Shown here piece after piece: positions 11,821 through 62,956 of a stretch of DNA of 64,000 bases. Below the pieces are notes generated by a model. It worked only from the letters and a program-made list of their open reading frames with translations, ran no database searches and was not told the origin of the DNA. The translations under genes and the position numbers were made by a program. Where the stretch lies: the sequence record PQ631072.1; one strand, given 5' to 3'. The first letter of the stretch is position 1. Every line of letters begins with the position of its first letter. The stretch comes from Escherichia phage EC.P2.

Positions 11821-11829
11821 GACCATCTA

Positions 11830-12885: not shown

Positions 12886-13237
12886 TGAGGGGGACGGTCG
12901 GCAGAAATCGGGGGCGCTGAAAATCGCGTTAAGCACCTCTCGCAAGCGAGCAGTATTTTGCGGCAAGTTATTGATATTATTGACTTTACGCTTATGAAAA
13001 GGGGGTGTGTCGAAATAAATCGGGTATACCGGAAAATTTTTGTGGCATAGATATTTATTTGTCTATATTATGTACTAAGGGGTGTGTTAAAAATAATAGG
13101 TATATATAGAATAATTGATAGGGAAATCCTATACTAAATCCTTCATTAATGATGTTCCTATGTTGCTGTCCTTGTAACAGATGAAAAGACGCTGTATGAT
13201 GTGTGGCATGAAACGTAAATTTATAAAGGAGTCTGAT

Positions 13238-13603: not shown

Positions 13604-13673
13604 AAATGTCTGTACACTGTGTTCCATATAATATGCAATACCGCGCATAACAAACTACTAATGAGAGGTGTAA

Positions 13674-13991
13674 ATGAAAACCTTAGCTTTGTATATTGAT
13701 CGTCACTCCATTCGAGAAATGCGAGATGTAGAACAGGATTATGAATTCTACCCAGAAATTTGTGAACGCTATGAAACAATTCTTAGTTCTGTAGAAGATC
13801 CAGATACTAGTGAAACAGGTGCTTCCCACTTACTGTGGATGTTGAGTGAAATTCAGGATGGGTGTAATGGTATGTCTGAAACCAAACGCCATCGTTGGCT
13901 AGGCTATATTCAGGGTGTTATGGTTATGAAAAACCTTATTACAGTGAACGATGAACGTAATGCTACACGCCCCGTCTTTAATGGAGCATAA
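13674..13991 (+). CDS. Hypothetical protein (105 aa)
   Basis: ORF with RBS gagagg. Confidence 0.55.
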   Translation: MKTLALYIDRHSIREMRDVEQDYEFYPEICERYETILSSVEDPDTSETGASHLLWMLSEIQDGCNGMSETKRHRWLGYIQGVMVMKNLITVNDERNATRPVFNGA

Positions 13992-24744: not shown

Positions 24745-25557
24745 TTATTTAGTCAAATGATCTTCTATCATTTTTATGAAAGCAGGATTGCTAAAAGCAT
24801 CTGCGGCTTTTTCTCGATAAACAAAGACTCCTCTATCTTCGTAAAGAAGAGTTTCTTCGTAATTAATTCCTGGGTTAACAACAATCATTTTTGTACCCAT
24901 ATTAAGTGCAGGGAATAATTCCCAATTAAAATTGATAACTTGGTTTGAACATCCTACTACAACAACCAAATCTTGCATGGTCAAAGTATCAAACAAGTGA
25001 GCCATATCTGCATACAAAGGTGCAGCCTCACCAAAAAATACAACATTAGGCTTCACCCAGTTATAATCATCTATGTTTATGCTGTTGTAACCAATATCTA
25101 CCAGTGTTTTGTAATCTCCAGGATGCATACGGTAAACTACTTCAGGAAGATATCCGTGCACGTGAATAACCGAATCTCTGTCTACACCTGCTCGCTCTAG
25201 TAGATCATCAACGTTTGTTGTCAAGTTTATTACTTGGTTAGGATATTCCTTAAACCACTTTGCTATTTGAATATGTGCAGCATTAGGTTGTACATCTTTA
25301 AGCTCAACACGTCTTTTGTTATAAAATTCGTGTGTTTTGGCATACAAATCCATACCATTTTCGTCTACACCACCAACCACTGGAAGATCTGGAGATGTTC
25401 TCACACGATAACCTGCTTGGAAAGCTCCAATATCGCAGACCTCTTCTAAATCATATTCTTCCCATAAAGCACGACCACTATCTGTGTCTGTTCGGAATGT
25501 TCGAATCCCACTGTCTGCACTTAAACCTGCACCACTGACAAAAATTACTCTTCGCAT
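24745..25557 (-). CDS. Sir2-family (sirtuin-like) NAD+-dependent enzyme, no zinc-ribbon cysteines (270 aa)
   Basis: GAGLSADSGIRTFR, TTNVDDL, HG and VVFFGE motifs; no CxxC pairs. Confidence 0.7.
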   Translation of the reverse strand: MRRVIFVSGAGLSADSGIRTFRTDTDSGRALWEEYDLEEVCDIGAFQAGYRVRTSPDLPVVGGVDENGMDLYAKTHEFYNKRRVELKDVQPNAAHIQIAKWFKEYPNQVINLTTNVDDLLERAGVDRDSVIHVHGYLPEVVYRMHPGDYKTLVDIGYNSINIDDYNWVKPNVVFFGEAAPLYADMAHLFDTLTMQDLVVVVGCSNQVINFNWELFPALNMGTKMIVVNPGINYEETLLYEDRGVFVYREKAADAFSNPAFIKMIEDHLTK

Positions 25558-26888: not shown

Positions 26889-27878
26889 TCATTCCTCCAT
26901 ACACTTAAGAATATGTGCAATGACAGGTATAGTCCAACCATTACCTAACATCTTATATGCTTGTGTGTTACTACTCACTTTAAAGTAATCATCTGGAACA
27001 CCTTGTAAGCGGCAACACTCTTTAACCGTTAACTTTCTATAATGCACGCCTTCGCTCAATTTTTCAAAGGCATCCAGATATCTTCCAGGTGGAATGTAAG
27101 CTAATAGTACATCTTTCGGCACAGTCGTGAGGCAACGAGTTTTTTCACTGTCTTGAACTTCCAAGCAATGTACCAAACGATCAGTTTTAGATGTACTACG
27201 TTTGCCATTTTCATTAATTCTACGCCCATATATTGCTGCTGGATAAAAAGCCAGTTGTCTGCGACTCTTTTCAAAATACTGTTCTATATTACCACCTTTG
27301 GCATAATTTGCATCTATGCAATAAGCCTTATCTCTGTCTACGATACTATCATCTTCAATGATATCTTGCAACACTTCATTGGTAATATCCCAAGGTTTTA
27401 TTTCCCAATTGCACCAGTATAAACGTTGTCTATTCTGTGCAGTGAAATCTGCGGAGTTAATGAATACGGGATCAACACCTAAGTAACTTGTGATCACGTT
27501 TTCCCACTCCACCTTCATCTTAACGTTTTCAAGCATGAACTTAACATTAGGGTTAAACTTTTTAATATGTTCAAGAATTTCAACATATTCAAAGAACAGT
27601 TTAGATCGCGGATCTTGAAAGTTCAAACCCTTACCAGAAGAAGAGAAGCCTTGGCACGGGCTACCACCTAACAAAAGATCAATTTCTCCCCACGGGATAT
27701 CCCATTCTCTCCATTTTGTAACATCCCCTAATTGAATAATGTCTGGAAAATTGGCTTGGCTTTCAGCTATGGCAAATTTGTCCAATTCTGAGGCATAATA
27801 TTTATCTACTTCAATACCTGCACTTTTTAGTGCAAGCATTCCTCCTGACATACCATCAAAAAGACTTAAAACTTTCAT
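26889..27878 (-). CDS. DNA (cytosine-5)-methyltransferase
   Basis: Motif I FDGMSGG, motif IV GGSPCQGFS, motif VI ENV, C-terminal GNGWT. Confidence 0.85.
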   Translation of the reverse strand: MKVLSLFDGMSGGMLALKSAGIEVDKYYASELDKFAIAESQANFPDIIQLGDVTKWREWDIPWGEIDLLLGGSPCQGFSSSGKGLNFQDPRSKLFFEYVEILEHIKKFNPNVKFMLENVKMKVEWENVITSYLGVDPVFINSADFTAQNRQRLYWCNWEIKPWDITNEVLQDIIEDDSIVDRDKAYCIDANYAKGGNIEQYFEKSRRQLAFYPAAIYGRRINENGKRSTSKTDRLVHCLEVQDSEKTRCLTTVPKDVLLAYIPPGRYLDAFEKLSEGVHYRKLTVKECCRLQGVPDDYFKVSSNTQAYKMLGNGWTIPVIAHILKCMEE

Positions 27879-32843: not shown

Positions 32844-33094
32844 TATTCATCCCAATCGTTGTTGCGAGCACTTTCAAGAACCTTGACAACTTCTGCGTAC
32901 TCTACAGCTAAACCAGCACACACTTCAGCTTGTTTTGCAATTGCTTGCTTAAAGAACATAGCGATTGCAACACTCTGTGTTGTGTGAATGTTATCTGCTT
33001 TAGTTGATACATGAAGATCAAAATCTTCTTCATCAAAGGTGAGTTCCATAGTAACAATAAATTTCTCGGTCATAAAAATGCTCCTCTTAAACAA
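32843..33094 (-). CDS. Hypothetical protein (83 aa)
   Basis: ORF. Confidence 0.45.
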   Translation of the reverse strand: MFKRSIFMTEKFIVTMELTFDEEDFDLHVSTKADNIHTTQSVAIAMFFKQAIAKQAEVCAGLAVEYAEVVKVLESARNNDWDE

Positions 33095-33596
33095 AATAGA
33101 AAGGTTGAGTTAAACCCAGCCTGTTTTTTGGGTCGTAGACGTACCAAGCATATGCTGTCTTGTCAGTACCACCTGCAACAAAAGATGGTCGTTCAGAAAG
33201 AACAATCAAATTTGTTGGTGGGTTCTGTTTATGGAATTCCCTTCGTTTAATAGACTCTAGGAACCCAAGACGCAACAAGTATATGCAAACGTCTGCTTCT
33301 TTTAAGCTCTTTTGCAAGAACTCAAGTGCAAGTCTGAATGGTGGATTTGTGATTATAATATCCGGCTTAGTATGCCATTCGTGGTTAAAATAATCCTTCC
33401 CTTCTTCTAACTCGCAATATTCTGATCCTTCTGGAAAATGTTGATAAATTGCAGCAGCAGCGCCTTTACACGGTTCTGCAAAAATAAAACCTTCTTCTTT
33501 AAGGTTATTAAAATCTATTACACTAAACAATGCATTTATACATTTTTGTGGAGTAGGATAGTAATCAGTTGGTGGACGATCATACTTATTTGCCAC
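33087..33596 (-). CDS. Phage-type DNA N6-adenine methyltransferase, putative (169 aa)
   Basis: NPPF catalytic motif, EPCKGAAA AdoMet-like motif; size typical of small phage Dam proteins. Confidence 0.6.
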   Translation of the reverse strand: MANKYDRPPTDYYPTPQKCINALFSVIDFNNLKEEGFIFAEPCKGAAAAIYQHFPEGSEYCELEEGKDYFNHEWHTKPDIIITNPPFRLALEFLQKSLKEADVCIYLLRLGFLESIKRREFHKQNPPTNLIVLSERPSFVAGGTDKTAYAWYVYDPKNRLGLTQPFYFV

Positions 33597-34054: not shown

Positions 34055-34708
34055 TTAATTATCAGAGGACACTTTATCAAGTTTTTCAGAGACTGTCAAT
34101 ACTTTTTCTTGTGATTCTTTCATTTCTGCTAAAATACTTTCAGCTTCATCACTATCAGGATCACCAGTCAACAGCATACTAATTAGTTGCTCCTTGCTGA
34201 AGTTCAGAATATCTTCCGCTGTTAGCTCCAGTTGTTCTTCGATCTCTTCAACAAAAGTTTCACCGCCTGAAAAAGCATCTCGTAGTTTTGCAACTTCCAT
34301 CGCTTCTTCTGGGGTTGCCCCAGCGTCTAAAGCTGCTAAAGCAAAATCTGCCCCACTACCAACAGCATAGTAATCTTCAGTTAAAGGATATGCTCGCGTT
34401 GGATTATTACCCTCGTGCATATAAATTTTACCGTCTGGGTGAACAACCAATGCCACAAACTCTTCATCTTCTTTATCAGGATCTGATTGGATCACCAAAC
34501 CTGGGATTGTCTCTTGTGCTGCCTGGCACTGTAAGTTTTGTTCAAACCAAGAAAAGAAAGTCAGGATAGAAGACAGACGTCCTGCACCACCAACAAGGTA
34601 ATCCCCAATTTTACGCACTTTCTTGAAATTTAAAGTGTCTACTCGATTACCTACTGTTACTTTACCGTCAGATAGAATTTTGTTATGTGTTGCAATAATT
34701 GTTGTCAT
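34055..34708 (-). CDS. HslV-like N-terminal-Thr peptidase with acidic C-terminal extension
   Basis: MTTIIA start, KKVRK ... GGAG and YAVGSGADFALAA blocks resembling E. coli HslV as recalled. Confidence 0.6.
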   Translation of the reverse strand: MTTIIATHNKILSDGKVTVGNRVDTLNFKKVRKIGDYLVGGAGRLSSILTFFSWFEQNLQCQAAQETIPGLVIQSDPDKEDEEFVALVVHPDGKIYMHEGNNPTRAYPLTEDYYAVGSGADFALAALDAGATPEEAMEVAKLRDAFSGGETFVEEIEEQLELTAEDILNFSKEQLISMLLTGDPDSDEAESILAEMKESQEKVLTVSEKLDKVSSDN

Positions 34709-35988: not shown

Positions 35989-36026
35989 GTTTGCACTCCT
36001 TATAAAAGGGGCTTTCGCCCCTTTGT

Positions 36027-36687: not shown

Positions 36688-36954
36688 TTACTCCGCAATC
36701 TGAGCCATGAATTCACGTAGTTCAGAAAAACCTCCTACGTGGGTTAGATGTTCACCATCTTCCACAAAAATTTGAGGGAAGGTACGTGGCAGAACACCTG
36801 TTTTCTCTAAAACCAGATTCTGAATCTGATCTAAAGAATAGTCTTCATCTAAGGTAAGGTATTTAAAATCCTGTTCACGCTGTTCTAGCAGAATTTTAGC
36901 GTTAGTGCAGAAAGGACAATTTGGTTTACCGTAGATAATAAAATTCATTTTCAC
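36688..36954 (-). CDS. Glutaredoxin-like protein (CPFC active site)
   Basis: IYGKPNCPFCTNAK motif; 88 aa. Confidence 0.75.
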   Translation of the reverse strand: MKMNFIIYGKPNCPFCTNAKILLEQREQDFKYLTLDEDYSLDQIQNLVLEKTGVLPRTFPQIFVEDGEHLTHVGGFSELREFMAQIAE

Positions 36955-37781
36955 TCCTTGTTTAAAAGTATAGTTAAAGTTCTTACAATACCGCTATCAA
37001 CACTTCGCGGATTTAAAGTAGGATCTGTTTTTAAATAAGATGTTGCTGGTCTGACTGCTTTAGAATTATAGGTTGAAGCAGATACAGGATTAACTGTAAC
37101 AGATAAATCTATAACAAGAAATATCTTTCGTGCAAAATCATACCAAGAAATATAATCTGCACCTGCATAGTGTACAATTTTACTATTTACACCATCTTTT
37201 ACAAGTTTAAAAATTGTTTCTGCCAGATCAGGTGCATAAGTAGGACATGATAAATGATCACATACTACATTAAATTCTTTTTGACCACCGTTGTAGCGTT
37301 CCAACATAGTTTTCAAAAAGTTATGTCCAAACTCACTATAAACAGAAGCTGTTCTGATAATAAGTGCTGTAGGACAAACTGTTTGTACTAAAGTTTCACC
37401 TAATTGTTTACTGTAACCATAGGTGTTCAAGGGGTTTGTTTTACTATCTTCTGTGCCAGCGACATGCCCATCAAAAACATAGTCTGTTGAAATATGTACA
37501 AACTGTATCAGTAAATCATTACATGCTTTGGCAATGTTTGTTGCACCGTATGCATTAACATTTATACAGGTGTTAACATCTTCTTCAGCTTTATCTACTG
37601 CTGTGTAAGCCGCACAATTCACAACAACATCAGGCACGTGCTGTACAAGACTATTCATAACATCTTTAAAGTTGGTAATGTCTATATCACTTGCTTCAAT
37701 CAAAATAACATCTTCTGGCGCAACTTTTGCCAAAGACTGTCCTAATTGACCTTTTGAACCAAAGATTAAAAATTTTGTCAA
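36951..37781 (-). CDS. rmlD: dTDP-4-dehydrorhamnose reductase
   Basis: N-terminal FGSKGQLG Rossmann motif; position in rmlBACD cluster. Confidence 0.8.
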   Translation of the reverse strand: MTKFLIFGSKGQLGQSLAKVAPEDVILIEASDIDITNFKDVMNSLVQHVPDVVVNCAAYTAVDKAEEDVNTCINVNAYGATNIAKACNDLLIQFVHISTDYVFDGHVAGTEDSKTNPLNTYGYSKQLGETLVQTVCPTALIIRTASVYSEFGHNFLKTMLERYNGGQKEFNVVCDHLSCPTYAPDLAETIFKLVKDGVNSKIVHYAGADYISWYDFARKIFLVIDLSVTVNPVSASTYNSKAVRPATSYLKTDPTLNPRSVDSGIVRTLTILLNKE

Positions 37782-38332
37782 AATATGATCTCCTTTAGTG
37801 TTTTGGCTTGCTGATCTTTTTGTGACAAGATAGGTTTAAAATTAATATCATTAAAGATTAAATCAAAACCCCAATCTATATTGATATCTGGATCATTCCA
37901 CGCAAGACTACACTCTGAAGTCGGATCGTAATATTCTGTGCATTTATATTCAAAATCAGCAATATCGCTAATCACAACAAAACCATGAGCGAAACCAGGA
38001 GGAATCCAAAATTGTGTTTTATTCTTTTCAGATAAGAGAACACCTACCCATTCTCCAAATGTTGGACTACCAACCCTAATATCTACAGCAACATCATAAA
38101 CTTCACCACGAACACAACGTACTAACTTCCCTTGTGGGTTTTTCTTTTGAAAATGAAGCCCACGTAGAACTCCTCGAATAGAACGTGAATGGTTATCTTG
38201 GACAAAGTTTTGTTTACCTATGTATTGATCATATAAAGCCTGATTAAAACTTTCTAAGAAAAAACCACGTTCATCTCCGTAAACGTCAGGTTGAATGATC
38301 AACAAATCTTCGATTTTTGTTGCTTGAATCAT
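37778..38332 (-). CDS. rmlC: dTDP-4-dehydrorhamnose 3,5-epimerase
   Basis: RGVLRGLHFQ cupin motif; 184 aa. Confidence 0.85.
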   Translation of the reverse strand: MIQATKIEDLLIIQPDVYGDERGFFLESFNQALYDQYIGKQNFVQDNHSRSIRGVLRGLHFQKKNPQGKLVRCVRGEVYDVAVDIRVGSPTFGEWVGVLLSEKNKTQFWIPPGFAHGFVVISDIADFEYKCTEYYDPTSECSLAWNDPDINIDWGFDLIFNDINFKPILSQKDQQAKTLKEIIF

Positions 38333-38344
38333 TTAACTCCCCCT

Positions 38345-39214
38345 TTATTTTAATTTAAGTAAATACTTACCGTAGTCTGTTTTACTTAAAACCTCTCCAG
38401 AACTTCTTACAGAGTCTAAAGTAATCCATTCATTTTTAAAAGCAATCTCTTCTAGGCATGCAACCTTCATCCCTTGTTGCTTTTCTATTGCATGAACAAA
38501 TTGAGATGCTTCCATAAGACTTTCATGTGTTCCTGTATCCAGCCAAGTGAAACCCCTTCCTAGTTTACAGACACGTAAAGTCTTTTCTTTCCAGTACATC
38601 TCATTTATATCTGTAATCTCTAACTCCCCTCTAGCAGAAGGTTTAACGCTCTTAGCTTTCTGTATAACAGAATTATCGTAAAAGTACAAGCCTGTGATTG
38701 CATAGTTGCTTTTTGGTGTTTTTGGTTTTTCTTCAATACTCACCACTGTACCTTCAGAATCAAATTCAACAACACCAAATCTTTCAGGATCATTTACGTG
38801 ATACCCAAAAATATTAGCTCCACCATTCTTTTCAATATGTTCTTTAGCAGAATCTAAAATGCTACCAAAACTCTGACCAAAGAATAAATTATCACCTAGC
38901 ACAAGTGCTACAGAATCTTCACCAATAAAGTTCTCACCAATAATAAAGGCTTCTGCTAAACCTTTTGGGCTGTTCTGTACTGCATACTGTAGGGAAATAC
39001 CAAAAGAAGAACCATCACCTAGAAGATTTACAAAATTAACTTGATCTTCTGGTGTTGTAATTATTAGTATTTCCCTAATTCCAGAAAGCATTAGGACAGA
39101 GAGTGGATAATAAATCATAGGCTTATCGTAAATTGGTAATAGTTGTTTACTAACCCCTTTAGTAACTGGGTAAAGTCTTGTTCCACTACCACCTGCTAAG
39201 ATAATACCTTTCAT
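38345..39214 (-). CDS. rmlA: Glucose-1-phosphate thymidylyltransferase
   Basis: [19 protein letters not shown]-terminus; 289 aa. Confidence 0.9.
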
Positions 39215-39222
39215 ACTCCTCC

Positions 39223-40212
39223 TTAAACTTTATTTTCCCACCACTCTTTGTTATCTACATACCAATCAATGGTTGAATAAAGTTTTTCTTCAAATGTGCC
39301 TTTAGCTTTCCACCCTAATTCCTTTTCAATCTTATAAGGATTCACTTCGTATCTTAAATCATGCCCAGGTCTATCTGTAACCATCTCAATGAGGCTACAA
39401 GCATCTGTTTCAGATGGATACACCGCATCCATATAATCACAAATCATATAGATTACATCAATATTAGTTCTAGGGTTTCTGCTTCCAATATTATATGTTT
39501 CTCCAGGTTTGCCTTTAGTTACTACTAGGTGTAATGCTTCTGCGTGATCGTCAACGTATAACCAATCTCTTACTTGAAGACCATTACCATAAACAGGGAT
39601 TGGTTTATGCATCAAGATATTTGTTATCGTTTTAGGTATTAGTTTTTCTGGATGATGATATGCTCCAAAATTATTTGAACAATTTGTTATAACTGTCGGA
39701 ACACCATAAGTACGATGCCACGCTCTTACCAAATGATCGCTTGCTGCCTTAGATGCAGCATATGGACTACTTGGCTTATAAGGATTCTGTTCTGTAAACG
39801 GATAATCCCCTTCTTCCAGATCACCATACACTTCATCTGTTGAAATATGATGGAACATTTTAAGATTTGATTTATCTCCCATTAAACGAACAGCTTCTAG
39901 AAGATTAAATGTCCCAACAATATTTGAATTTATAAAAACACTCGGTGATGCTATTGAATTATCTACGTGACTTTCTGCTGCAAGATGCATTATATAATCT
40001 GGATTAACATCTGCCACAATCTTAGCAGTTAACTGCGCATTTGTCAAGTCAACACGACAAAACTTTACATTAGGTGTTTCTGATAAATTTCTAGGGTCTG
40101 AAGCGTAACCCCATTTATCTATAACGTAAATATCATTCTTAGTATTTTTAGCCAGGAAACGAACTACTGCACTTCCAATAAAGCCTAAACCACCTGTTAC
40201 TAAGTATTTCAT
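39223..40212 (-). CDS. rmlB: dTDP-glucose 4,6-dehydratase
   Basis: [18 protein letters not shown]-terminus; 329 aa SDR. Confidence 0.85.
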
Positions 40213-40406
40213 TTAGTCTCCTTCCAATTATTTCCTTCAGTAAAAATAATACCTTCATAAAACAACCATCTGGAACCTTTTTCAACAGGAACAGGAATCT
40301 CTTCTTCAGTAAAGTTATAAACCTCTCTAGCATCTTCTAAAAGTGATGCAAATGTTTTTGGACTTACTGTTACGCGAGGAGCATTGATCAGTCGATCTAG
40401 CATCAT
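40209..40406 (-). CDS. Hypothetical protein (65 aa)
   Basis: Track ORF trimmed to ATG with GGAGG RBS. Confidence 0.4.
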   Translation of the reverse strand: MMLDRLINAPRVTVSPKTFASLLEDAREVYNFTEEEIPVPVEKGSRWLFYEGIIFTEGNNWKETK

Positions 40407-40419
40407 TCTACTATCCTCC

Positions 40420-40746
40420 TTACCAAACGTGTTGAGAAATAATAGTTTCCGTTTCAATGTTATATTTTTCAAGAAGTTGTACGTAGGCTTCTTTTGCATT
40501 CTTATTTAGTTGCTCAAGATCTACAGCTATACTTCCTTCGCCACCTTCTAAATAAATGCCATATATGCAATAAGATTCATCAGCATCATAGAAAGGAGAG
40601 ATACGACTTAAATCAAGACCTTCTTGTAAGAACCAGTTCAAATCTCCATCAAATTCTTCTTCAATTTTAGGATCTTCTCCTACAGCCTCTTCCCATTTAT
40701 TAAAAGGTGCACCCTGTAACATACGCCATGCAATATCAACTCCCAC
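40420..40746 (-). CDS. Hypothetical acidic protein (108 aa, GTG start)
   Basis: ORF with GAGGAGG RBS. Confidence 0.45.
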   Translation of the reverse strand: MGVDIAWRMLQGAPFNKWEEAVGEDPKIEEEFDGDLNWFLQEGLDLSRISPFYDADESYCIYGIYLEGGEGSIAVDLEQLNKNAKEAYVQLLEKYNIETETIISQHVW

Positions 40747-40882
40747 TATCTTCCTCCTCTTCTTTTTCTTCTGTATGAACGAAACCTAAGCCGTTACAAT
40801 TCCAACAAGGAATAAATTGTTCCATACTAACAATAAAATTCCCAGTACCACCGCAGACAGGACAAATACTTACATCGTCCAT
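40736..40882 (-). CDS. Small zinc-ribbon protein (48 aa)
   Basis: CPVCGG ... CWNCNG; below track cutoff. Confidence 0.35.
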   Translation of the reverse strand: MDDVSICPVCGGTGNFIVSMEQFIPCWNCNGLGFVHTEEKEEEEDSGS

Positions 40883-40884
40883 TA

Positions 40885-41067
40885 TTAAAGCTCCTCAATC
40901 TTTTCTAACATCTGTTTTAACTCATTCTCTGTTAACAGAATTTCTGTGATACCATCATAAGTTTCTACCATCAGAGTAAAACATTTCTCTCCATCTGAAC
41001 ACACAAAAGCGCCACCTTCATCTTCTGTTAAGTCAGAATTAATATCTACATCAACAAAATCAATCAT
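40885..41067 (-). CDS. Hypothetical protein (60 aa)
   Basis: Trimmed to ATG with AAGGAG RBS. Confidence 0.4.
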   Translation of the reverse strand: MIDFVDVDINSDLTEDEGGAFVCSDGEKCFTLMVETYDGITEILLTENELKQMLEKIEEL

Positions 41068-41278
41068 CTTTTTCTCCTTTGATAATTTCAAACTTGGCTA
41101 CACCATTAACTATAATATGACCGCAAGACATAACTCCTAGCCAATGATCACCATTCTTTTTTAAACGTTTGCCGTAAACATCACAGAAACCATTCTGTAA
41201 TTCGGAAGCCTCATAAGAGGCTCCCTTTTCGAAAACGTCTTTGAAGTCAGAAATTAATCCAACACAAAGTAGTTTCAT
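41060..41278 (-). CDS. Hypothetical protein (72 aa)
   Basis: ORF. Confidence 0.45.
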   Translation of the reverse strand: MKLLCVGLISDFKDVFEKGASYEASELQNGFCDVYGKRLKKNGDHWLGVMSCGHIIVNGVAKFEIIKGEKDD

Positions 41279-42363
41279 TAGAAGTCTAACTCCTCGTCAT
41301 CACTTACATCTTTATTTGCTGAATTCAGTTTGTAAGCTGTAATTTGGATCTCCTGTGCTGCTGCTTGAATTTGATCTGGATTTAACCAAACATCCATCCA
41401 AGGCAGTGGACTTTTCTTCGGTGCACGGAATTTGTGTTTCATTTTCAGTCTGCGATAGATAGGTGCAGCATTGAAGTAAACCCAAAGTTTGAACAACTCT
41501 GCGTTACCACCAACGATAACCCTTCCTTCACTAAACAAATAGTCACACCAATCTTCCTCTTGTCCAACTACCGTATCAAGAATTTCTGTCAGAACGTCGA
41601 TATTATCTTCGTATACTTTTCTCCAAACAGGATCTTTCAGCAGTGCATCAATAATAGCATAATCCATTTTAACGTGCAATAGTTCATCCAACATAATTTT
41701 TTGAATGAGTTTAGCTGCACCTACAAACAATTGCTGCTCTGCTAAGGCAAATGTTGCAGCAAAAGAGGATATGAATTGAATGCCTTCCAGACCGATAAGT
41801 GCAATCATTCCTTTCAAGATCAGTAGACGAAGGTTATCATCCTTCTCAATCAGACCTAGAGCATATTTATGTCCTGCCTCTGCCAGATCACCCATTATCT
41901 CTTCAACTATACCCATCCTCTGGAAGATTCTTTCATTCTCCATAATCTGATCGATAACTTCATTTGGATTAGGGATACACTGACGAATAATTTCAGAATA
42001 TGTCAAAGCGTGTAAAACTTCCATTTCTGATTGCTTCATCATCATTGCACATGCTTCGTTGTTGCTTAAAAATGGTGCAAACAAAGTGATAATTGATTTA
42101 GCAAGTGAATCATTTTCCCATTGGAAAGATAGGTTTTTGATCATAACATCATAGTTGCTTTTAGAACAAGCTACGAAATCTTTTCGTGTCTGATCTAAGT
42201 CTACTTCGTTTTCATCCCAATCTTGCTGTTTTTGTAGTTTGTACAGACGATGCATTTCTGGGTATGTTACATTAATAGAATCAAAAATACCTAACTGTTC
42301 TCCCAAAAATACAGGATAGAAACCTTCTTTGTAAGTGTCGTTGTATAAATTAATCGCTGCCAT
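41278..42363 (-). CDS. nrdB: Ribonucleotide reductase class Ia small subunit
   Basis: LIGLEGIQFISSFAATFALAE block; adjacent to nrdA. Confidence 0.85.
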   Translation of the reverse strand: MAAINLYNDTYKEGFYPVFLGEQLGIFDSINVTYPEMHRLYKLQKQQDWDENEVDLDQTRKDFVACSKSNYDVMIKNLSFQWENDSLAKSIITLFAPFLSNNEACAMMMKQSEMEVLHALTYSEIIRQCIPNPNEVIDQIMENERIFQRMGIVEEIMGDLAEAGHKYALGLIEKDDNLRLLILKGMIALIGLEGIQFISSFAATFALAEQQLFVGAAKLIQKIMLDELLHVKMDYAIIDALLKDPVWRKVYEDNIDVLTEILDTVVGQEEDWCDYLFSEGRVIVGGNAELFKLWVYFNAAPIYRRLKMKHKFRAPKKSPLPWMDVWLNPDQIQAAAQEIQITAYKLNSANKDVSDDEELDF

Positions 42364-42725: not shown

Positions 42726-44987
42726 TTACATCTTACAAGCCTCACAACCAGATTCTTCATCTTCTTGAGCGAGTGAGGTTGCCGATTTTGTTCTACTATT
42801 TAGATAGTACAAAGATTTACCACCAAGTTTTGCAAACTGAAGGATATATTGCATTTCTGATTTAATGGATAAACGACCACCTTCCATTTTAGAATAGTCA
42901 ATCCACTTATCACATGATGCACCTTGATCTAAGAATTTAGTCAATAATCCATATGCTTCAGCCATATCTTTATCTGGCGTATCCCAAGCCGATTGGTAAA
43001 TATCTTTTAGTTTATCATAGTCTGGCACAATAAACAGGACATTACCTTTTTGGCTTTGTTTATAAACTATAGTATCACGTACAGGATACACAGAGTTAGT
43101 CGTATTACTTACAAGACTACTGGACTCATTCGGAGCAATAGCTGCTAATACGCTATTTCGGATACCGCCTTGTGCAATGATATCTTGTCGTAAACCTTCC
43201 CAATCCATTTTAAGTTTAAAATTGCCAATATCGTCTACAGCTTTAGCGTAGGTGTCAATAGGCAACCATCCTTCAGGCCATTTGGTTTTATGCATCCATT
43301 CTGCATTACCCTTCTCTTTTGCCAAACGAAGAGAAGCTCTTGCTAACCAGTAATAATGCCTTTCTGCTAATTCGTGAATTAGTTTTTTGCCGTAAGGATC
43401 TGAATAAGTAACAAAATTACTTGCCAGATAATGTGCAAGGTTTGTAATACCTACACCGATAGACCTACGTGCTTTAGCAGTGATTTCGTTATGTTTAAAC
43501 GGATACTGCATTGTTTCAATAACATTATCAATAGTTAGAACTGTATAGTATGCAACATCTTCATATTCTTCTGGTGTAACACGACCAGCTACAATAGAAG
43601 ACAGGAAGCATAATGCCAATTCTTGATCTTCTGTATTCTCACCTGTGAAAAGATCAGTCATATTGTGAAATGCTTTCGTAGGTAAGAAAATTTCTTGACA
43701 CAAGTTTGACTGATAAATAACATCCTTAAACGGAGTATGCCTATTAGCATTATCCGCAAAGAACATATAAATACGTCCTGTCTCTGCTCTTTGTGTAATA
43801 ATTTCTGCCAGAAGATCTCGTGCTTTTACGAACTTTTTCTTAATTCGTTTGCGACTAACTTTTTCATATACTTCTTCAAACTCTTCCTCGCTTTTATAAA
43901 GCGCCTCATAGAGTTCTGGTGCTTCGTCATAACTAACTAGCATCCAATCTTTACCTTTTGCTGCACGGCGCAGGAAAGCATTGTTTACTACGATAGAGTA
44001 ATCAAGTTTATCTACTCGTTTTTCACTAACAGTAGTTGGGTTTTTCAAACGTACCAGATCTTCAAAATCAGGTTCTAATATTGTAAACGTTACTGTTGCA
44101 CTTCCACCACGACTTGCTTGTTTTGATGCTCCAACACTTGTTTCCATCCATTTCAGATATGGTAAAAGACCACCGTGAACGATACGGTTGTTCTTAACAC
44201 CTTGTCCTGTGGCACGGGTTTGGAGGTTAACACCAATACCTGCATTATTCAATGTATATTCATGCGCAAGATAGTTAGCAATTGCTAAAGATTCTGCTGT
44301 ATCATCTGCTCTAAACAGACAACAAGAAGCACTACCTTTAATCTTAGTACGCAAAGTTGTTAAATAAGGTGATGGTAAATTAATCTTAAGATCACTTACG
44401 TAGGTATATAGACGTTTAATGTCTTCTACTCTGCGATCTTTTGGTTGGATTTCCATTACCTTCATTGCTACACCAATGAATAAAAACTGTGGTGATTCAA
44501 AAACAACATCATTGATCGCATCTTTCACAAGATACTTATCAACCATCTGGCGCAGTACGGAATAACCATAAGTTAGGTTTTTATCGTGATTGACAATCTT
44601 ACCAATCTCAATAATTTCTTCTTCTGTATAATCCATTTTTCCCCAATAGCCTTTACTTACAGACATATTGTAGAAATCCAGGAGGGAGGGGATATTGTGA
44701 TATCCCCCATGAGCCTGTTTATAAATCATACCAAGAAGTAACCGACCTGCCATATCACTATATGCCTGATCTTTCTTATCAATACATGCTGCTATCATAG
44801 CTTTATGTAAATCACGAGTAGGCACACCATCGTAACAACGTTTAACAGCTTCAAGTTCAATTTCAGACCAATTTAATTTACCAGCAGCAAACTCTGACCA
44901 TTTACGAAGTTTTTCTGGATTAAATTCTTCTTTCTTGCCGTTTGTTTTTGTTACATAACGGATAGATTTGCTTAGATACTGAGTCAC
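42726..44987 (-). CDS. nrdA: Ribonucleotide reductase class Ia large subunit
   Basis: NLCQEIFLPT active-site motif; C-terminal CEAC tail; 753 aa. Confidence 0.9.
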   Translation of the reverse strand: MTQYLSKSIRYVTKTNGKKEEFNPEKLRKWSEFAAGKLNWSEIELEAVKRCYDGVPTRDLHKAMIAACIDKKDQAYSDMAGRLLLGMIYKQAHGGYHNIPSLLDFYNMSVSKGYWGKMDYTEEEIIEIGKIVNHDKNLTYGYSVLRQMVDKYLVKDAINDVVFESPQFLFIGVAMKVMEIQPKDRRVEDIKRLYTYVSDLKINLPSPYLTTLRTKIKGSASCCLFRADDTAESLAIANYLAHEYTLNNAGIGVNLQTRATGQGVKNNRIVHGGLLPYLKWMETSVGASKQASRGGSATVTFTILEPDFEDLVRLKNPTTVSEKRVDKLDYSIVVNNAFLRRAAKGKDWMLVSYDEAPELYEALYKSEEEFEEVYEKVSRKRIKKKFVKARDLLAEIITQRAETGRIYMFFADNANRHTPFKDVIYQSNLCQEIFLPTKAFHNMTDLFTGENTEDQELALCFLSSIVAGRVTPEEYEDVAYYTVLTIDNVIETMQYPFKHNEITAKARRSIGVGITNLAHYLASNFVTYSDPYGKKLIHELAERHYYWLARASLRLAKEKGNAEWMHKTKWPEGWLPIDTYAKAVDDIGNFKLKMDWEGLRQDIIAQGGIRNSVLAAIAPNESSSLVSNTTNSVYPVRDTIVYKQSQKGNVLFIVPDYDKLKDIYQSAWDTPDKDMAEAYGLLTKFLDQGASCDKWIDYSKMEGGRLSIKSEMQYILQFAKLGGKSLYYLNSRTKSATSLAQEDEESGCEACKM

Positions 44988-45767: not shown

Positions 45768-46739
45768 TCACCATTTTGTATGGTTCGTCAAAAGTTGACG
45801 ATGTTGAATCCAACCACAGAAGTTTCCACTCCACAAACGATGTTTACGATCCATATGTGTAATACCTTCTTCCCAAGAGGAAGGGAACGGAGGAATATTA
45901 ATACCACCTTTCTGTTGTTTTAATCCTGACAAATCCATTTCTTTCATTGGCGTTGCCTGGTGTTCAAACGGAGATGCATGTACCTTTTGTCCAGACAGCA
46001 AACGAGAATAGATATCCAATGCTTTATCTTTAGTATCATTCAACTTACGATAACTTACCTGAGCGCAACAAGAAGCTGAAATAGCTTTTGCTTCATCTTC
46101 TGTCAACACTTTCTCGTTGGAGAAGGTTTCACCCAAGAAATAACGGATCATACCAGTTTCTGGATCTCGATCACGATTAACGTAAGGTGTATGCCATTCC
46201 CCTGGGAAAAGAAGATATGGTTCAGAAGATTCATACAGTTTTTTAATTTCTTTAGCAAGAGCCTCAATAGTAGGATCTGCATCAGCATCTACGCGCAACC
46301 ACAAGAAGTTTTCTAGCTCTGTAGTGGTTACTACAGTCTTCATACGCTGAAATGGTTCTAGTAGGCGGTTTGCAACCTGTTTATGATAACCAGCAAGGGC
46401 AAACTCTTCTGCAAAACGTGCAGCACTTAGTGCAGCCAAGTCCCACCATTCTTTTGCAGTATAACCTGCATCAATCAGGGCATCGTGATCTGTGCCTTTA
46501 TCTTGCATACCTGGTTGGTTAGCACCAAAACGATAAGGACGTGCTGGAGATTGCCGTACCATTTCAATCAGAGTTTTAACAGGGATAGCTCGACTTGATG
46601 CGGCATTACGAGAAAACAAACGATGCGTCATCAATTCAGAGTGAATGATTCGAGGATATTCAAGTTCAAAGGTAACAATATCCTTACCTTCGGATGTTTG
46701 AGAGTGTGCAATAATTTTTGCTGAAATAGAATTTGTCAT
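45768..46739 (-). CDS. thyX: Flavin-dependent thymidylate synthase (ThyX-like), putative
   Basis: HRLFSRNAASSR resembles the ThyX RHR-x7-8-S-x-R signature (first Arg replaced by Thr). Confidence 0.55.
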   Translation of the reverse strand: MTNSISAKIIAHSQTSEGKDIVTFELEYPRIIHSELMTHRLFSRNAASSRAIPVKTLIEMVRQSPARPYRFGANQPGMQDKGTDHDALIDAGYTAKEWWDLAALSAARFAEEFALAGYHKQVANRLLEPFQRMKTVVTTTELENFLWLRVDADADPTIEALAKEIKKLYESSEPYLLFPGEWHTPYVNRDRDPETGMIRYFLGETFSNEKVLTEDEAKAISASCCAQVSYRKLNDTKDKALDIYSRLLSGQKVHASPFEHQATPMKEMDLSGLKQQKGGINIPPFPSSWEEGITHMDRKHRLWSGNFCGWIQHRQLLTNHTKW

Positions 46740-55475: not shown

Positions 55476-55880
55476 TTATTGTAGCTTAAGTGAACTGCGA
55501 AGACGTTTCTCTTGCTGATCACGAATATGTTGTGGAACCTCATGAATTGAGTCGTTACCGTGCCTATTTTCAACAACTAAGGAGATAACTTGATAACCAA
55601 ACTCTTCAGCAAGAGTAAAATAAGGTTTAAGTTCTTTCTCTGTGGTTGAAGTGTTAGAGACAATAATCTTTTTAATATTAGATGCCATAGCATCACGAAC
55701 AATACTCTGACACCATGCGTGTGCTTTACCTACATTCTCTGGCTTCCAATCGTAAACACCACTATCTGTGTAATGATATTGATCTGCCTCACAGATAGGC
55801 CAATAACCTTCAGAAATAATTTCTGCTACTGTAGATTTACCTGCACCTGAAACACCACGTAAGATGATAAGTTGTTTCAT
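55476..55880 (-). CDS. P-loop kinase, polynucleotide-kinase-like
   Basis: Walker A LRGVSGAGKST; adjacent to RNA-ligase-like gene. Confidence 0.5.
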   Translation of the reverse strand: MKQLIILRGVSGAGKSTVAEIISEGYWPICEADQYHYTDSGVYDWKPENVGKAHAWCQSIVRDAMASNIKKIIVSNTSTTEKELKPYFTLAEEFGYQVISLVVENRHGNDSIHEVPQHIRDQQEKRLRSSLKLQ

Positions 55881-56813
55881 TTAGCCTCCAAAGAAGTTTT
55901 CTATTTCTTTACGTCGCTCTTGTGGATCTAAAGCAGCCCATTGAGTTTTAGTAAAGTTGTTTCGAAGCCATTCTAGCAAAGTATAATATTCTTCGTCAAC
56001 AATTTGTTTAGCATTTTTTGGGTTGTCCCAAATCATATCCCACTTCTTATTGCCACCACGCATAAGGAATTTCTTAGCAAGATAGTATGGTGACTTAATC
56101 TTTAACAGCAAGTTAAACGGATAGTTTGTTTCACGAACAACAAACCCTTCGTGCTTACAATGTTTAGACATTTCAACAACATCTGAAAATTTAATCATCG
56201 GATAAACTTCAGGACGTTTAAATTTTGTAATAGATGCAATCCCATCAAGCACACCTTCAGGTAGCATGAAACTTGTCCCATCAGGATTTTGAATCCTTGC
56301 TCCAATTAAGTATGCGCCTGGTTCTTCTTCAACAATATGTGGATCAGAAGGATCACAGATTTCAAAAAGGAAAGTTGCTTTTGCACTTTCTGTCCACTTA
56401 ATGAAATATTCTATGTCATCACACTCGGAAACAATATGATTCTTGGCAAGAATTGCAAAATCTGACTCTAGGCTCCCTGTTGTTGATACAATAAGTTGCC
56501 CTTTGTACACACCTACAGATGCCATAAAACCGTTTACTTTACGGACAGCATCTACAAGCTGGTCTGCTGGAAGATCTGTACCATTCTCAAAACGATTAAA
56601 GATTTTAGTAAAAGGCCAAATAACAACATTGTCTTCTGAGTCAACAACCAACCCACGACAATCTAGAAGGCGTTTGTCTACGTCCCACAAGTTGTCCCAG
56701 AATACATTGTTTTTGTATTTAAGTACAGCAAGACCAGCATACTCTCCAGATTTAACTTCTTTTTTATGCACTAAACCTTTTGCAATCAGGTCATCACAAT
56801 TGAACTTAGCCAC
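55881..56813 (-). CDS. RNA ligase, T4 Rnl1-like (putative)
   Basis: LLDCRGLVV ... KIFNRFENG and KVNGFM resemble T4 RnlA LECRGIMF ... FFNLNEN and KEDG as recalled. Confidence 0.5.
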   Translation of the reverse strand: MAKFNCDDLIAKGLVHKKEVKSGEYAGLAVLKYKNNVFWDNLWDVDKRLLDCRGLVVDSEDNVVIWPFTKIFNRFENGTDLPADQLVDAVRKVNGFMASVGVYKGQLIVSTTGSLESDFAILAKNHIVSECDDIEYFIKWTESAKATFLFEICDPSDPHIVEEEPGAYLIGARIQNPDGTSFMLPEGVLDGIASITKFKRPEVYPMIKFSDVVEMSKHCKHEGFVVRETNYPFNLLLKIKSPYYLAKKFLMRGGNKKWDMIWDNPKNAKQIVDEEYYTLLEWLRNNFTKTQWAALDPQERRKEIENFFGG

Positions 56814-60257: not shown

Positions 60258-61151
60258 ATGAAAGTTAGTATTCTGCATGGTGTTGACTGTTATGTTACTG
60301 ATGTAGACGTTAAAGTGTTTACATTCTCTGGTGGAGAACAACATGTTCAATTAGATACGAATCTATCAGGTTTCAATCATGCTACAGACAGAATCTTACT
60401 CACTTTAGAAGTAAGATCTGCTAAAGACTTGATGACTTTGGTTATGACTAAGAATGCATTGGACAATATGCTATATCATAAACCATATTGTGTTGATTTA
60501 CTCATGTTGTATGTGCCGTATGCACGACAAGACAGAGTGTGTGAGCCTGGGGAAGCATTCGGAGTTAAAGCATTTGCTTCTATAATTAATTCATTAAATT
60601 TCTCACGTGTTATCGTTGCTGATCCGCATAGTGATGTTACTCCAGCAGTGTTTGACAGACTCTGTGTAATACCTCAAGAAGAGATTGCTTACGAAACTTT
60701 AAAGTGGAAGTTACGTATGGAGAATTTTGCTCTTGTTAGCCCTGATGGTGGTGCTCTTAAGAAAATATTTAAATTATCTAAGAAAATGTCTTTAGATGTG
60801 TTCTGTGCAGAGAAGGTTAGAGATACCGCAACAGGTGCTATTGTTCGTACAGACATTTCTGTACAGGATTTCAATAAGCGTAACCTGATGATCGTAGATG
60901 ATATCTGTGATGGTGGTAGAACTTTTATCGAATTGGCTAAAGTGCTACGTGCTCGTAACGCAGGTAAGATTGAGCTATATGTTACGCACGGTATCTTTTC
61001 TAAAGGTCTTAAAGAGTTAAGTGAGCACTTTGACTGCATTCATTCTCTTAATGTGTGGGAAGATAACATCCAAGAAGATTCTGGTGTTCTTGTTAAGAAT
61101 CAGTCAGATTTGCAACAACAAATTGTATCTCCATACGTGTGGAATTTTTAA
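60258..61151 (+). CDS. prs: Ribose-phosphate pyrophosphokinase (Prs) family protein; candidate ADPR-PP synthetase of a NARP1-like module
   Basis: YARQDR, VSPDGGA and IVDDICDGGRT Prs-type motifs. Confidence 0.8.
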   Translation: MKVSILHGVDCYVTDVDVKVFTFSGGEQHVQLDTNLSGFNHATDRILLTLEVRSAKDLMTLVMTKNALDNMLYHKPYCVDLLMLYVPYARQDRVCEPGEAFGVKAFASIINSLNFSRVIVADPHSDVTPAVFDRLCVIPQEEIAYETLKWKLRMENFALVSPDGGALKKIFKLSKKMSLDVFCAEKVRDTATGAIVRTDISVQDFNKRNLMIVDDICDGGRTFIELAKVLRARNAGKIELYVTHGIFSKGLKELSEHFDCIHSLNVWEDNIQEDSGVLVKNQSDLQQQIVSPYVWNF

Positions 61152-61222: not shown

Positions 61223-62956
61223 ATGAATATTTTTGCACCTTTTGCTACTGATTGGTACAAACCTGGTCACAAGCAGATGTACAACCAAAATACAAAACTT
61301 ATTTTCTCTAATTTAACTCCTCGTAATGATAAAAACTTTGCACACTATGCAGATCGTGAAGCACGTGGTGTGATTGTTTTAGGTATTCGTCGAGCAGTCA
61401 CTGATGCTCTTGTAACTATGTGGGATAGCTTCTTTAAAATGTCTCGTAGTGCAGCAGTAAATAAGTTTTATCGTATGTCTAAAAATGCATTAGGTGCTTC
61501 TGCGCCTTCTGCTGAATGTTGGGGAGAATTGCACGACTTAGGTTATCTTCCGCTGGAAGTTCGATCTCTGCCAGAGGGTGTTTTGTGTCCTATTGGTGTT
61601 CCTGTATTTACTGTGCATAATACTTTAGAAAAATTCTTTTGGTTAACTAACTATGTGGAAACACTGTTGTCAGATGAAACTTGGAAGACAATGACTAATG
61701 CCACAGCAGCTTTTCAGTATAAGCGTATCGCTATGGCATATGCGATGGCAACGTGTGATAATATTGATCACGTTAACTTCCAGTGTCATGATTTTAGCCT
61801 ACGTGGTTTAAGTAATATCGAAGATGGTTATAAGAGTGGTATCGCTCACTTGGCATCGTTCACAGGAACAGATAATATTCTGGCTATTGAAACTGTGCAT
61901 GATTATTATGGTATTGATTATGATCAGTTTGTTGCAGGTTCGATTCCGGCAACAGAACATTCAGTAGCAACGACTAACATTGGAGCTATTGTTGAAGATC
62001 TGAAGAAACATTTCCCACATCTTAAAGATGATGTAGATGGGCTTCGTTATGTAGCAGAAAAAGAGTTTCTTCGTCGTTATATCGAAGAAATTGTTCCAGA
62101 AGGTTTTTGTTCATATGTAGCAGACTCTTATGACTATTGGGCTGTATTGACTCGCATTCTGGTAGAATTGAAAGATTCCATTATGTCACGAAATGGTCGT
62201 CTTGTTATTCGTCCAGATTCAGGAGATCCGGTTAAAGTTGTTGCAGGATACAATGTTGAATCTTTTGATAACTATGAAGACCTTTTAAATAATGGTATTG
62301 CGACAGCCACTGAAGTAGTTCATTTGGCTGATGTTAATAAGTATTACAATGTTCTTCAGGATTGCAGTGTTGCTGATTGCATTGATGAAACTTATGAGAT
62401 TCCTTATTGTGAAGCAGTAGGTTCTATTCAAATTCTTTGGGAAGTGTTTGGTGGTACTATCAACCGAAAAGGCTACAAGGTTCTTGATCAGCATATCGGT
62501 ATGATTTATGGTGATTCTATTACTGTTGAACGAGAACACGAGATCTTACGCCGACTGAAGAAGAAAGGTTTTGCAGCTTCCAATATTGTATTTGGTGTTG
62601 GTAGTTATACTTATCAGTTCAATACACGAGATACTTTTGGTTTTGCTGTTAAAGCAACAGGTAGTATCATCGGTGAACACGAAATTTTGGTAAGTAAGGA
62701 GCCTAAAACTGATCCTGGTAAACGCTCTGCAAAAGGTTTTATTAAGGTTGTTAAGGATACCAATGGTAATCTTTCTCTTGTAGATAATCTTTCTTTTAAA
62801 GATATCCAGGATGAAGACAATGAGTTACAAGTTATCTTCAAGAATGGTAAGGTTATTACACCACAAGTAGAAGGTCGTGATGAAACATTCACTGATATCC
62901 GCAACCGTGTTGATGTAGAGGTTCTTCGTACTATGGGAACCATCCAGGTTGACTAA
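61223..62956 (+). CDS. nadV: Nicotinamide phosphoribosyltransferase (Nampt/NadV) family protein with C-terminal extension
   Basis: N-terminal FATDWYKPGHKQMY characteristic of Nampt; 577 aa. Confidence 0.8.
   Translation: MNIFAPFATDWYKPGHKQMYNQNTKLIFSNLTPRNDKNFAHYADREARGVIVLGIRRAVTDALVTMWDSFFKMSRSAAVNKFYRMSKNALGASAPSAECWGELHDLGYLPLEVRSLPEGVLCPIGVPVFTVHNTLEKFFWLTNYVETLLSDETWKTMTNATAAFQYKRIAMAYAMATCDNIDHVNFQCHDFSLRGLSNIEDGYKSGIAHLASFTGTDNILAIETVHDYYGIDYDQFVAGSIPATEHSVATTNIGAIVEDLKKHFPHLKDDVDGLRYVAEKEFLRRYIEEIVPEGFCSYVADSYDYWAVLTRILVELKDSIMSRNGRLVIRPDSGDPVKVVAGYNVESFDNYEDLLNNGIATATEVVHLADVNKYYNVLQDCSVADCIDETYEIPYCEAVGSIQILWEVFGGTINRKGYKVLDQHIGMIYGDSITVEREHEILRRLKKKGFAASNIVFGVGSYTYQFNTRDTFGFAVKATGSIIGEHEILVSKEPKTDPGKRSAKGFIKVVKDTNGNLSLVDNLSFKDIQDEDNELQVIFKNGKVITPQVEGRDETFTDIRNRVDVEVLRTMGTIQVD

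Follow-up and report, generated by a model that had tools for sequence, protein, structure and literature searches.

The rml Genes of Escherichia Phage EC.P2

The DNA considered here is a stretch of 64,000 nucleotides from the genome of Escherichia phage EC.P2 (sequence record PQ631072.1), referred to below as the window, and the element in question is a run of four genes, rmlB, rmlA, rmlC and rmlD, whose predicted products would together make deoxythymidine diphosphate (dTDP)-L-rhamnose. The window is from a Justusliebigvirus (the phi92-like phages), being about 98% identical to the phages ECGD1 and PaulScherrer (Bas60), and it matches about 82–146 kb of the PaulScherrer genome. The segment at 36688–40212 consists of five tightly packed open reading frames (ORFs), all on the minus strand. 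Read in the direction of transcription, rmlB (39223–40212) encodes a dTDP-glucose 4,6-dehydratase of 329 amino acids (aa), rmlA (38345–39214) a glucose-1-phosphate thymidylyltransferase of 289 aa, rmlC (37778–38332) a dTDP-4-dehydrorhamnose 3,5-epimerase of 184 aa, and rmlD (36951–37781), which begins at a TTG codon, a dTDP-4-dehydrorhamnose reductase of 276 aa; the fifth frame, at 36688–36954, encodes a glutaredoxin.

Each of the four Rml proteins scores above the equivalog cut-off of the corresponding NCBIfam model: RmlB reaches 441.6 bits against a cut-off of 365 (TIGR01181), RmlA 474 against 361 (TIGR01207), RmlC 260 against 156 (TIGR01221) and RmlD 253.6 against 224 (TIGR01214), and the Pfam assignments are consistent with these. 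The closest PDB entry to RmlB is the Salmonella enterica RmlB 1g1a (E 1.8e-116), with the GxxGxxG motif, the TDE triad and the YxxxK motif (YAASK) all kept, and the closest to RmlA is S. enterica RmlA 1iim (E 3.6e-125), to which it aligns over its full length as a short-form enzyme of about 290 aa with the signature GGSGTRLYP. RmlC is closest to 1dzr (E 6e-64) and keeps the counterparts of His63, Lys73 and Tyr133; Asp170 (S. enterica numbering) falls outside the block aligned with 1dzr, and an unaligned KD motif (SQKDQQ) occurs in the protein. RmlD is closest to the Firmicute RmlD structures 3sc6 and 1vl0 (E about 1e-44) and keeps GSKGQLG, STDYVF and YxxxK (YGYSK), but on the enterobacterial-type model NF007440 it reaches 139 bits against a cut-off of 308 and so does not belong to the enterobacterial subtype. 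The same four enzyme families and catalytic motifs make up the RmlABCD (RfbBDAC) pathway of E. coli and Salmonella, and RmlA and RmlB align in full length with the S. enterica enzymes (E 1e-116 to 1e-125).

The proteins encoded at 36951–40212 are apparently a complete and functional RmlB/A/C/D set, and sequence analysis could hardly make the gene assignments more secure. A first-pass annotation of this DNA had read four contiguous minus-strand genes as rmlB-rmlA-rmlC-rmlD, and it holds: the ORFs lie where it placed them, all four proteins exceed the equivalog cut-offs and the catalytic motifs are kept. The counter-case that it raised itself, that the proteins might be other short-chain dehydrogenase/reductase (SDR), cupin and nucleotidyltransferase enzymes, fails on the equivalog scores and on PDB matches with E values of 1e-44 to 1e-125, which lie far outside what chance would give.

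The ATG of rmlB is preceded by the Shine-Dalgarno sequence GGAAGGAG, and the corresponding sites are AAGGAGG for rmlA, AAGGGGGAG for rmlC and AAGGAG for rmlD, whose TTG start overlaps the rmlC stop codon by 4 nt; throughout the block, neighbouring rml genes either overlap by 4 nt or are separated by 8–12 nt. All four Shine-Dalgarno sites are strong. Because the genes overlap or are separated by such short gaps, they are most probably co-translated from a single transcript. The glutaredoxin ORF (PF00462, E 2.4e-12) is a neighbour of the rml genes that stands outside the rhamnose pathway; its true start is probably the ATG at 36948, giving a protein of 86 aa as in the PaulScherrer annotation and thus no overlap with rmlD. 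When 35.9–45.4 kb of the window was scanned for promoters and terminators, candidate sites were no more numerous than in shuffled sequence. A perfect G+C-rich palindromic hairpin, AAAGGGGCTTTCGCCCCTTT, at 36005–36024 between the endolysin gene and phoH, is the sole terminator-like element close to the rml block.

Conservation, Selection and Point of Insertion

The segment at 36688–40212 shares 98–99% nucleotide identity with 55 GenBank records of Justusliebigvirus, among them ECGD1, alia, muut, PHB05, VEcB and PaulScherrer/Bas60, in which the genes are already annotated as a rhamnose pathway, and the operon is annotated in more than 130 genomes of the subfamily Stephanstirmvirinae. RmlC homologues occur in 169 phage records, 54 of them at 95% identity or more and 77 at 60–80%, the latter being Phapecoctavirus and other Stephanstirmvirinae. 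Because these counts almost match those of the core gene nrdB (55 and 77 records in the same two bands), the rml operon is a core feature of the subfamily. Across phi92, ECGD1, PaulScherrer/Bas60, alia, phAPEC8 and Klebsiella phage 05F01 the locus is orthologous, and nothing substantive about it differs. More distant RmlC homologues, at 34–46% identity, are found in Synechococcus phages (where rmlC lies beside a GDP-mannose dehydratase gene), in Sphingomonas phage PAU and in uncultured jumbo phages; these are separate lineages with other gene neighbourhoods.

The first-pass annotation took a full rhamnose pathway to be unexpected in a virulent phage, and the novelty that this implies is not borne out, the operon being conserved and annotated throughout the subfamily and already discussed in print. 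Olsen et al. (2020) found it "peculiar" and offered DNA glycosylation as a guess (PMC7552041), and Maffei et al. (2021) wrote of a "putative dTDP glycosylation machinery" (PMC8594841). The operon itself is therefore a known, annotated feature of a well-sampled phage subfamily; our literature search found no paper that establishes the function of the phage rml genes by experiment. As a separate matter, four unannotated GenBank records labelled "Campylobacter phage" with the host C. jejuni (MG065639, MG065645, MG065656 and MG065689) are 98.4% identical to 36688–40212, and the host given for them is probably mistaken, or else contaminated samples were involved.

All four genes are under strong purifying selection. 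Against PaulScherrer, the ratio of nonsynonymous to synonymous substitution rates (dN/dS) is 0.085 for rmlB, 0.044 for rmlA, 0.035 for rmlC and 0.093 for rmlD, similar to the value of about 0.03 for nrdA and nrdB; between genera, where dS is saturated, the Rml proteins share 54–72% amino-acid identity and dN/dS is 0.1–0.4. The relation to host genes is remote. In a nucleotide-level comparison with 5,426 complete E. coli genomes, all matches fell in the 60–80% identity band, the best at 65–68%, and in none of the genomes did they cover 80% of the region. Phage and host also arrange the genes differently (B-A-C-D and rfbB-D-A-C, respectively), and the setting is another one, since the phage genes lie in a virulent phage between nrdB and the glutaredoxin gene (grx) and outside any polysaccharide cluster. 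In a search of 5.8 billion proteins, all relatives of the phage RmlD at 50% identity or more were on phage-sized contigs, and bacterial homologues began only below a gap in identity, at 46% or less, the named ones being from Bacteroidota. By these comparisons the phage RmlD forms a clade of its own, closer to the Firmicute and Bacteroidota types than to the enterobacterial enzyme.

These observations bear directly on the suggestion that the genes are a recent and functionless capture of host O-antigen genes, or that they are misread SDR, cupin and nucleotidyltransferase enzymes. It is true that rml genes are common in Enterobacteria and have a low G+C content there, as in the phage. However, all four proteins pass the equivalog cut-offs, identity to E. 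coli does not exceed 65–68% and never extends across 80% of the region, the gene order differs, dN/dS lies at 0.04–0.09, the cluster has been kept across genera whose Rml proteins are only 54–72% identical, and RmlD belongs to a phage-specific clade. We regard recent capture as refuted by the identity, gene order, selection, cross-genus conservation and RmlD clade, and the alternative as a whole as having a negligible probability; the first-pass annotation had named a recent non-functional host capture as the finding that would overturn its reading, and this case too falls away.

Both phAPEC8 and the distant Klebsiella phage 05F01 have exactly the same gene order, nrdA-nrdB-small ORFs-rmlB-A-C-D-grx-endolysin-phoH. 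In WalterGehring, a Vequintavirus, nrdB is followed directly by grx, without rml genes; the vequintaviruses are a related, rV5-like group treated together with the phi92-like phages by Maffei et al. (PMC8594841). Because nrdB abuts grx in WalterGehring, the rml cluster and the accompanying small ORFs are an insertion into an ancestral nrdAB-grx unit, and grx belongs to the reductase module. In the window, the left boundary of the insertion is nrdB (41278–42363, minus strand), with nrdA (42726–44987, minus strand) as its upstream context, both identified from their translations and the annotation of orthologues. Between nrdB and rmlB, at 40209–41278 on the minus strand, the ORF list has about five small ORFs of unknown function, which are hypothetical in PaulScherrer (bas60_0214-0218) and in phAPEC8 (gp162-165) and gave no Pfam match among those tested.

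Two points concern the first-pass annotation. A functional tie of the rml genes to the glutaredoxin beside which it placed them is not supported, the adjacency being a product of the insertion, and grx is rejected as a member of the rhamnose module on the evidence of its place directly after nrdB in WalterGehring. It also placed the rml genes upstream of nrdAB, thyX and tdk, and by the direction of transcription they are downstream of tdk, thyX, nrdA and nrdB. The location is probably a matter of early or middle co-expression and not of a mechanistic tie to nucleotide metabolism, to which the sole real link is that deoxythymidine triphosphate (dTTP) is a substrate of the pathway.

A Glycosyltransferase Cluster Outside the Window

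No recognisable glycosyltransferase was found within the window, as judged from the PaulScherrer annotation of the matching stretch and from scanning 51 unannotated proteins, each 108 aa or longer, with Pfam. The first-pass annotation had reported the same absence, which is correct for the window but is an artefact of its edges: the genome of the 98%-identical PaulScherrer has a cluster about 70 kb away, bas60_0048-0051, four consecutive genes annotated as disaccharide synthases or glycosyltransferases that lie beside the primase/helicase and DNA polymerase genes. The calls come from PHROG, Pfam and predicted fold: two paralogues are GT-B/GT4-like and one enzyme is GT-A/GT2-like, these three being clear glycosyltransferases, and the fourth is a putative one labelled by PHROGs only. 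Individual members are called here GT1, GT3 and GT4 (the last being bas60_0051), and enzyme families are marked as such. Sequence searches with GT1, GT3 and GT4 against PDB chains gave no significant match, and the folds came from structure prediction alone, by which GT1 matches enzymes of the GT-B fold and GT4 family, and GT3 enzymes of the GT-A fold and GT2 family, including GlfT2, K4CP, TarP, TarS and the Listeria rhamnosyltransferase RmlT. The protein GT4 has no Pfam or NCBIfam match, takes its label from PHROG names alone and in profile comparison shows no similarity to GT1 or GT3.

GT1 and GT3 occur in nearly the same phage genomes as RmlC and are co-conserved with it: at 95% identity or more and at 60–80%, respectively, there are 54 and 77 phage records for RmlC, 55 and 71 for GT3, 53 and 74 for GT1, and 55 and 77 for NrdB. 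Three metagenomic contigs, of 118118, 151530 and 154881 bp, likewise hold homologues of both RmlD and GT1. Farther afield, a distant metagenomic phage contig of 135 kb carries a gene resembling nucleoside diphosphate (NDP)-hexose 4,6-dehydratases between its homologues of GT4 and GT3. The product of this gene (L012, 2667–3737) shares 27% identity with the phage RmlB, and its TIGR01181 score of 171 bits falls short of the cut-off; the extra dehydratase suggests that the sugar used varies between lineages. In Streptomyces phage KimJongPhill, the genes flanking a GT1 homologue (hhalign probability 99.8%) encode a 4,6-dehydratase-like protein and a methyltransferase, and this locus immediately precedes the terminase and portal genes. 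The 135-kb contig and KimJongPhill are two independent observations that tie these glycosyltransferase families to 6-deoxyhexose chemistry. GT3-like genes in Klebsiella phage FKP3 and Citrobacter phage Tr1 were set aside, as they are isolated paralogues among small early genes and uninformative on co-occurrence.

Beyond the subfamily, nearly every phage homologue of GT3 is a glycosyltransferase from a cluster-F mycobacteriophage, and the match of GT3 to gp98 of Mycobacterium phage Pacc40 is strong (hhalign probability 99.2%, E 1.8e-19). Pacc40 is a Cheoctovirus, as is Che8, in which phage glycosyltransferases reportedly glycosylate the capsid and the tail tube (PMC11256854; PMC12363180). The 6-kb right end of Pacc40, which holds its glycosyltransferases, differs from the phi92-like arrangement in having no annotated sugar-nucleotide genes, a statement that applies to that end only.

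Directly upstream of the glycosyltransferase cluster in all relatives lies a Ter-type module encoding TerC, TelA, vWA-TerF-like and TerD proteins together with a cell-wall hydrolase domain. It occupies 51.5–63.7 kb of the PaulScherrer record (L003, about 1500–13700) and corresponds to 1201–8941 of L011 and 453–8651 of L013 in relatives; near it, PaulScherrer also encodes CapR, a macrodomain protein, a phosphoribosyltransferase and a HAD protein.

Use of the Sugar and Its Possible Acceptors

The explanation that we consider best, and hold with moderate confidence, is that the operon provides a self-sufficient supply of dTDP-L-rhamnose for the phage's own glycosyltransferases, with a protein as the preferred acceptor. 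During infection, RmlB, RmlA, RmlC and RmlD would convert glucose-1-phosphate and dTTP to dTDP-L-rhamnose. An ancestor of the Stephanstirmvirinae would have acquired the cluster long ago, and, given its place between nrdB and grx, it is most probably carried on the early or middle nucleotide-metabolism transcript; it would since have been inherited vertically under purifying selection. As far as is known, E. coli always has paralogues of RmlA and RmlB for enterobacterial common antigen (ECA), and it has RmlC and RmlD only in O-serotypes that contain rhamnose. The purpose of the phage set is most likely to free a broad-host-range phage from the serotype of its host for one sugar donor, and the consumer is most likely the glycosyltransferase cluster beside the primase/helicase and DNA polymerase genes. 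The sequences establish what the genes are, that they are intact and under selection, that they were inserted, and that they are conserved along with the glycosyltransferases; activity of the enzymes in vivo, the connection of rml genes to glycosyltransferases, and the acceptor are inferences.

As to the acceptor, our preferred guess, made by analogy with the Che8-type mycobacteriophages, is a phage protein, so that the virion itself would be glycosylated; a virion or other protein as the target is a tentative proposal, and the specific version in which phi92-like and phAPEC8-like coliphages rhamnosylate their virion proteins with self-made dTDP-L-rhamnose through the GT3/GT1 cluster is possible though doubtful. 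In the mycobacteriophages Che8, Corndog and Myrna (Freeman et al. 2023, as cited in PMC11256854 and PMC12363180), the phage glycosyltransferases reported to modify the virion are likewise encoded outside the structural module, and GT3 is homologous to the large Pacc40 glycosyltransferase, which is a weak lead to a protein acceptor.

Several observations weigh against this explanation. Che8 gp110 and Corndog gp38, the enzymes reported to be essential for capsid glycosylation (PMC12363180), were not matched to any protein of these phages, and in profile comparison the protein GT4 shows no similarity to the second Pacc40 glycosyltransferase, gp100. The glycosyltransferase genes lie in the replication region, away from the late structural genes, and the virion proteins have no obvious Ser/Thr-rich C-terminal tails except for a short tail on the sheath protein, NSQNSNSSTVSS. 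The fold matches of GT1 and GT3 are generic, pointing equally to enzymes that glycosylate lipid-linked sugars, teichoic acids or DNA. Finally, some 70 kb separates the rml cluster from the glycosyltransferase cluster, and their co-conservation is a weak profile that may go back to a single ancestral event.

The alternative offered in print is that dTDP-L-rhamnose feeds glycosyltransferases that decorate the phage DNA as a protection from restriction (PMC7552041; PMC10844046), in the manner of the glucosyl-hydroxymethylcytosine of T4 or the arabinosyl-5-hydroxycytosine of RB69 and DLP3. The rml genes do lie in a nucleotide-metabolism block, the glycosyltransferases stand beside the primase/helicase and DNA polymerase genes in all relatives examined, and there is precedent for phages that combine their own NDP-sugar pathway with several DNA-acting glycosyltransferases (PMC13326640): RB69, DLP3, HY126 and T4 are, like the phages considered here, lytic myoviruses with an NDP-sugar supply and several GT-B/GT4-like enzymes. 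However, phages with glycosylated cytosines are highly resistant to restriction (PMC13326640), whereas the phi92-like phages, including PaulScherrer, were reported to be "exceptionally susceptible" to restriction-modification systems (PMC8594841). The enzymology also differs, in that the sole thymidylate synthase is of the ThyX type and no ThyA-type hydroxymethylase or 5-hydroxy-deoxycytidine monophosphate synthase was found; the Pfam scan of the 51 unannotated PaulScherrer proteins returned no ThyA, TET/JBP or 2-oxoglutarate-dependent oxygenase domain. GT3 has weak matches to the Pfam family TAGT (PF20691) and to the PHROG of the T-even beta-glucosyl-HMC-alpha-glucosyltransferase, but the TAGT match, at no more than 23.3 bits, is below the gathering threshold of 27.5 and covers profile positions 36–96 of 205, corresponding to some 55 N-terminal residues around the DxD motif; for GT1, the better fold matches are GT4-family enzymes that do not act on DNA. 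A C5-cytosine methyltransferase encoded in the window can be counted in favour of DNA modification. With the restriction sensitivity, the ThyX-only complement and the missing ThyA family taken together, the T4- or RB69-type pattern of hyperglycosylation is not seen here, and bulk modification of DNA is an unlikely fate for the sugar; modification might instead be confined to sparse, sequence-specific sites, and we consider DNA as the acceptor to be rather improbable overall. The suggestion of DNA glycosylation in the first-pass annotation is accordingly disfavoured by the published restriction sensitivity (PMC8594841).

The infected cell's envelope has also to be considered, since bacterial dTDP-rhamnose serves cell-surface polysaccharides. 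The sugar could build or cap a glycan on undecaprenyl-phosphate-linked intermediates, on the lipopolysaccharide (LPS) core or on ECA, and the masking or depletion of surface-glycan receptors would exclude superinfecting phages or reduce the loss of progeny on cell debris. The fold matches of GT3 to GlfT2, K4CP, TarP, TarS and RmlT fit this idea, four transferases would be about enough for one oligosaccharide, and these phages recognise surface glycans, including ECA and the LPS core (PMC8594841). However, neither the annotation nor the scan turned up a flippase, polymerase, ligase or polyprenyl-phosphate transferase; the phages are strictly lytic and have little time for surface turnover, and among phages GT1 and GT3 have their closest homologues in actinophages, where the gene surroundings suggest the virion rather than the host envelope. 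An envelope acceptor appears slightly less probable still than DNA. Less likely again, and by our estimate very improbable, is that the pathway serves no phage transferase at all and acts as a sink or regulator of dTTP, glucose-1-phosphate or dTDP-4-keto-6-deoxyglucose. Rhamnose and the ECA sugar Fuc4NAc are both made from the last of these, so that ECA synthesis could be starved of dTDP-Fuc4NAc, or the dTTP pool could be buffered, and the position of the genes within the thyX-tdk-nrdAB block would suit such a role. That position is accounted for by the insertion event, though, and a phage of 63% A+T needs its dTTP; a sink does not need the conservation of all four enzymes with intact active sites, and the co-conserved glycosyltransferase cluster offers a direct consumer.

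Thymidylate Synthase, Methyltransferases and Other Genes of the Window

The gene described as thyX-like in the first-pass annotation does encode a ThyX-type thymidylate synthase (PF02511) with the motif THRLFSRNAASSR. It lies at 45768–46739 on the minus strand, and its long (323 aa), divergent product matches part of the Pfam Thy1 profile with 37 bits. In the motif, Thr replaces the first Arg, and the gene is kept in relatives as "thymidylate synthase"; the possibility that this variant is a hidden hydroxymethylase was set aside, the ThyX motif being essentially intact. The C5-cytosine DNA methyltransferase is full length (26889–27878, minus strand; PF00145, E 2e-43), and the gene at 33087–33596 (minus strand) encodes an N6-adenine methyltransferase by the annotation of relatives, with no Pfam match here. 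Despite these two methyltransferase genes, the phages are reported to be restriction-sensitive (PMC8594841).

Elsewhere in the window, three genes, at 24745–25557 (minus strand), 60258–61151 (plus strand) and 61223–62956 (plus strand), encode a Sir2-family protein, a phosphoribosyl pyrophosphate-synthetase-like protein and a nicotinamide/nicotinate phosphoribosyltransferase. They form a set related to nicotinamide adenine dinucleotide (NAD) that possibly serves salvage against NAD-depleting host defences. The gene at 34055–34708 (minus strand) has a weak PF00227 match to HslV/proteasome-like peptidases and is annotated in relatives as a proteasome component or HslV-family peptidase. An RNA ligase gene (PF09511) at 55476–56813 (minus strand) adjoins a gene annotated as polynucleotide kinase in PaulScherrer, a combination resembling the tRNA-repair pair of T4. 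Small ORFs, almost all hypothetical in PaulScherrer, form a long array in the left third of the window (1–24000, plus strand); GC skew is positive here and reverses at about 24 kb, at the change of coding strand.

Implications

To a known operon the analysis adds the site between nrdB and grx at which it was inserted, evidence that it is under selection, the case against host capture and the link to a glycosyltransferase cluster outside the window. It also adds that glycosyltransferases of these families are repeatedly associated with 4,6-dehydratases and with glycosylation loci of actinophages. In these phages a complete sugar-nucleotide pathway takes up about 3.3 kb and the glycosyltransferases about 3.2 kb, and selection on all of these genes is strong. 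If the target proved to be DNA or the host surface, the pathway would represent a new rhamnose-based mechanism of anti-defence or exclusion. If virion proteins are rhamnosylated, they would be the first glycosylated virions described among phages of Gram-negative bacteria, and glycan shielding by phages would extend beyond the actinophages. The Stephanstirmvirinae, coliphages of broad host range, are frequently put forward for therapy and biocontrol, and a glycan coat could alter the immune recognition, stability or host range of therapy phages, with a bearing on their pharmacokinetics and on their neutralisation by antibodies.

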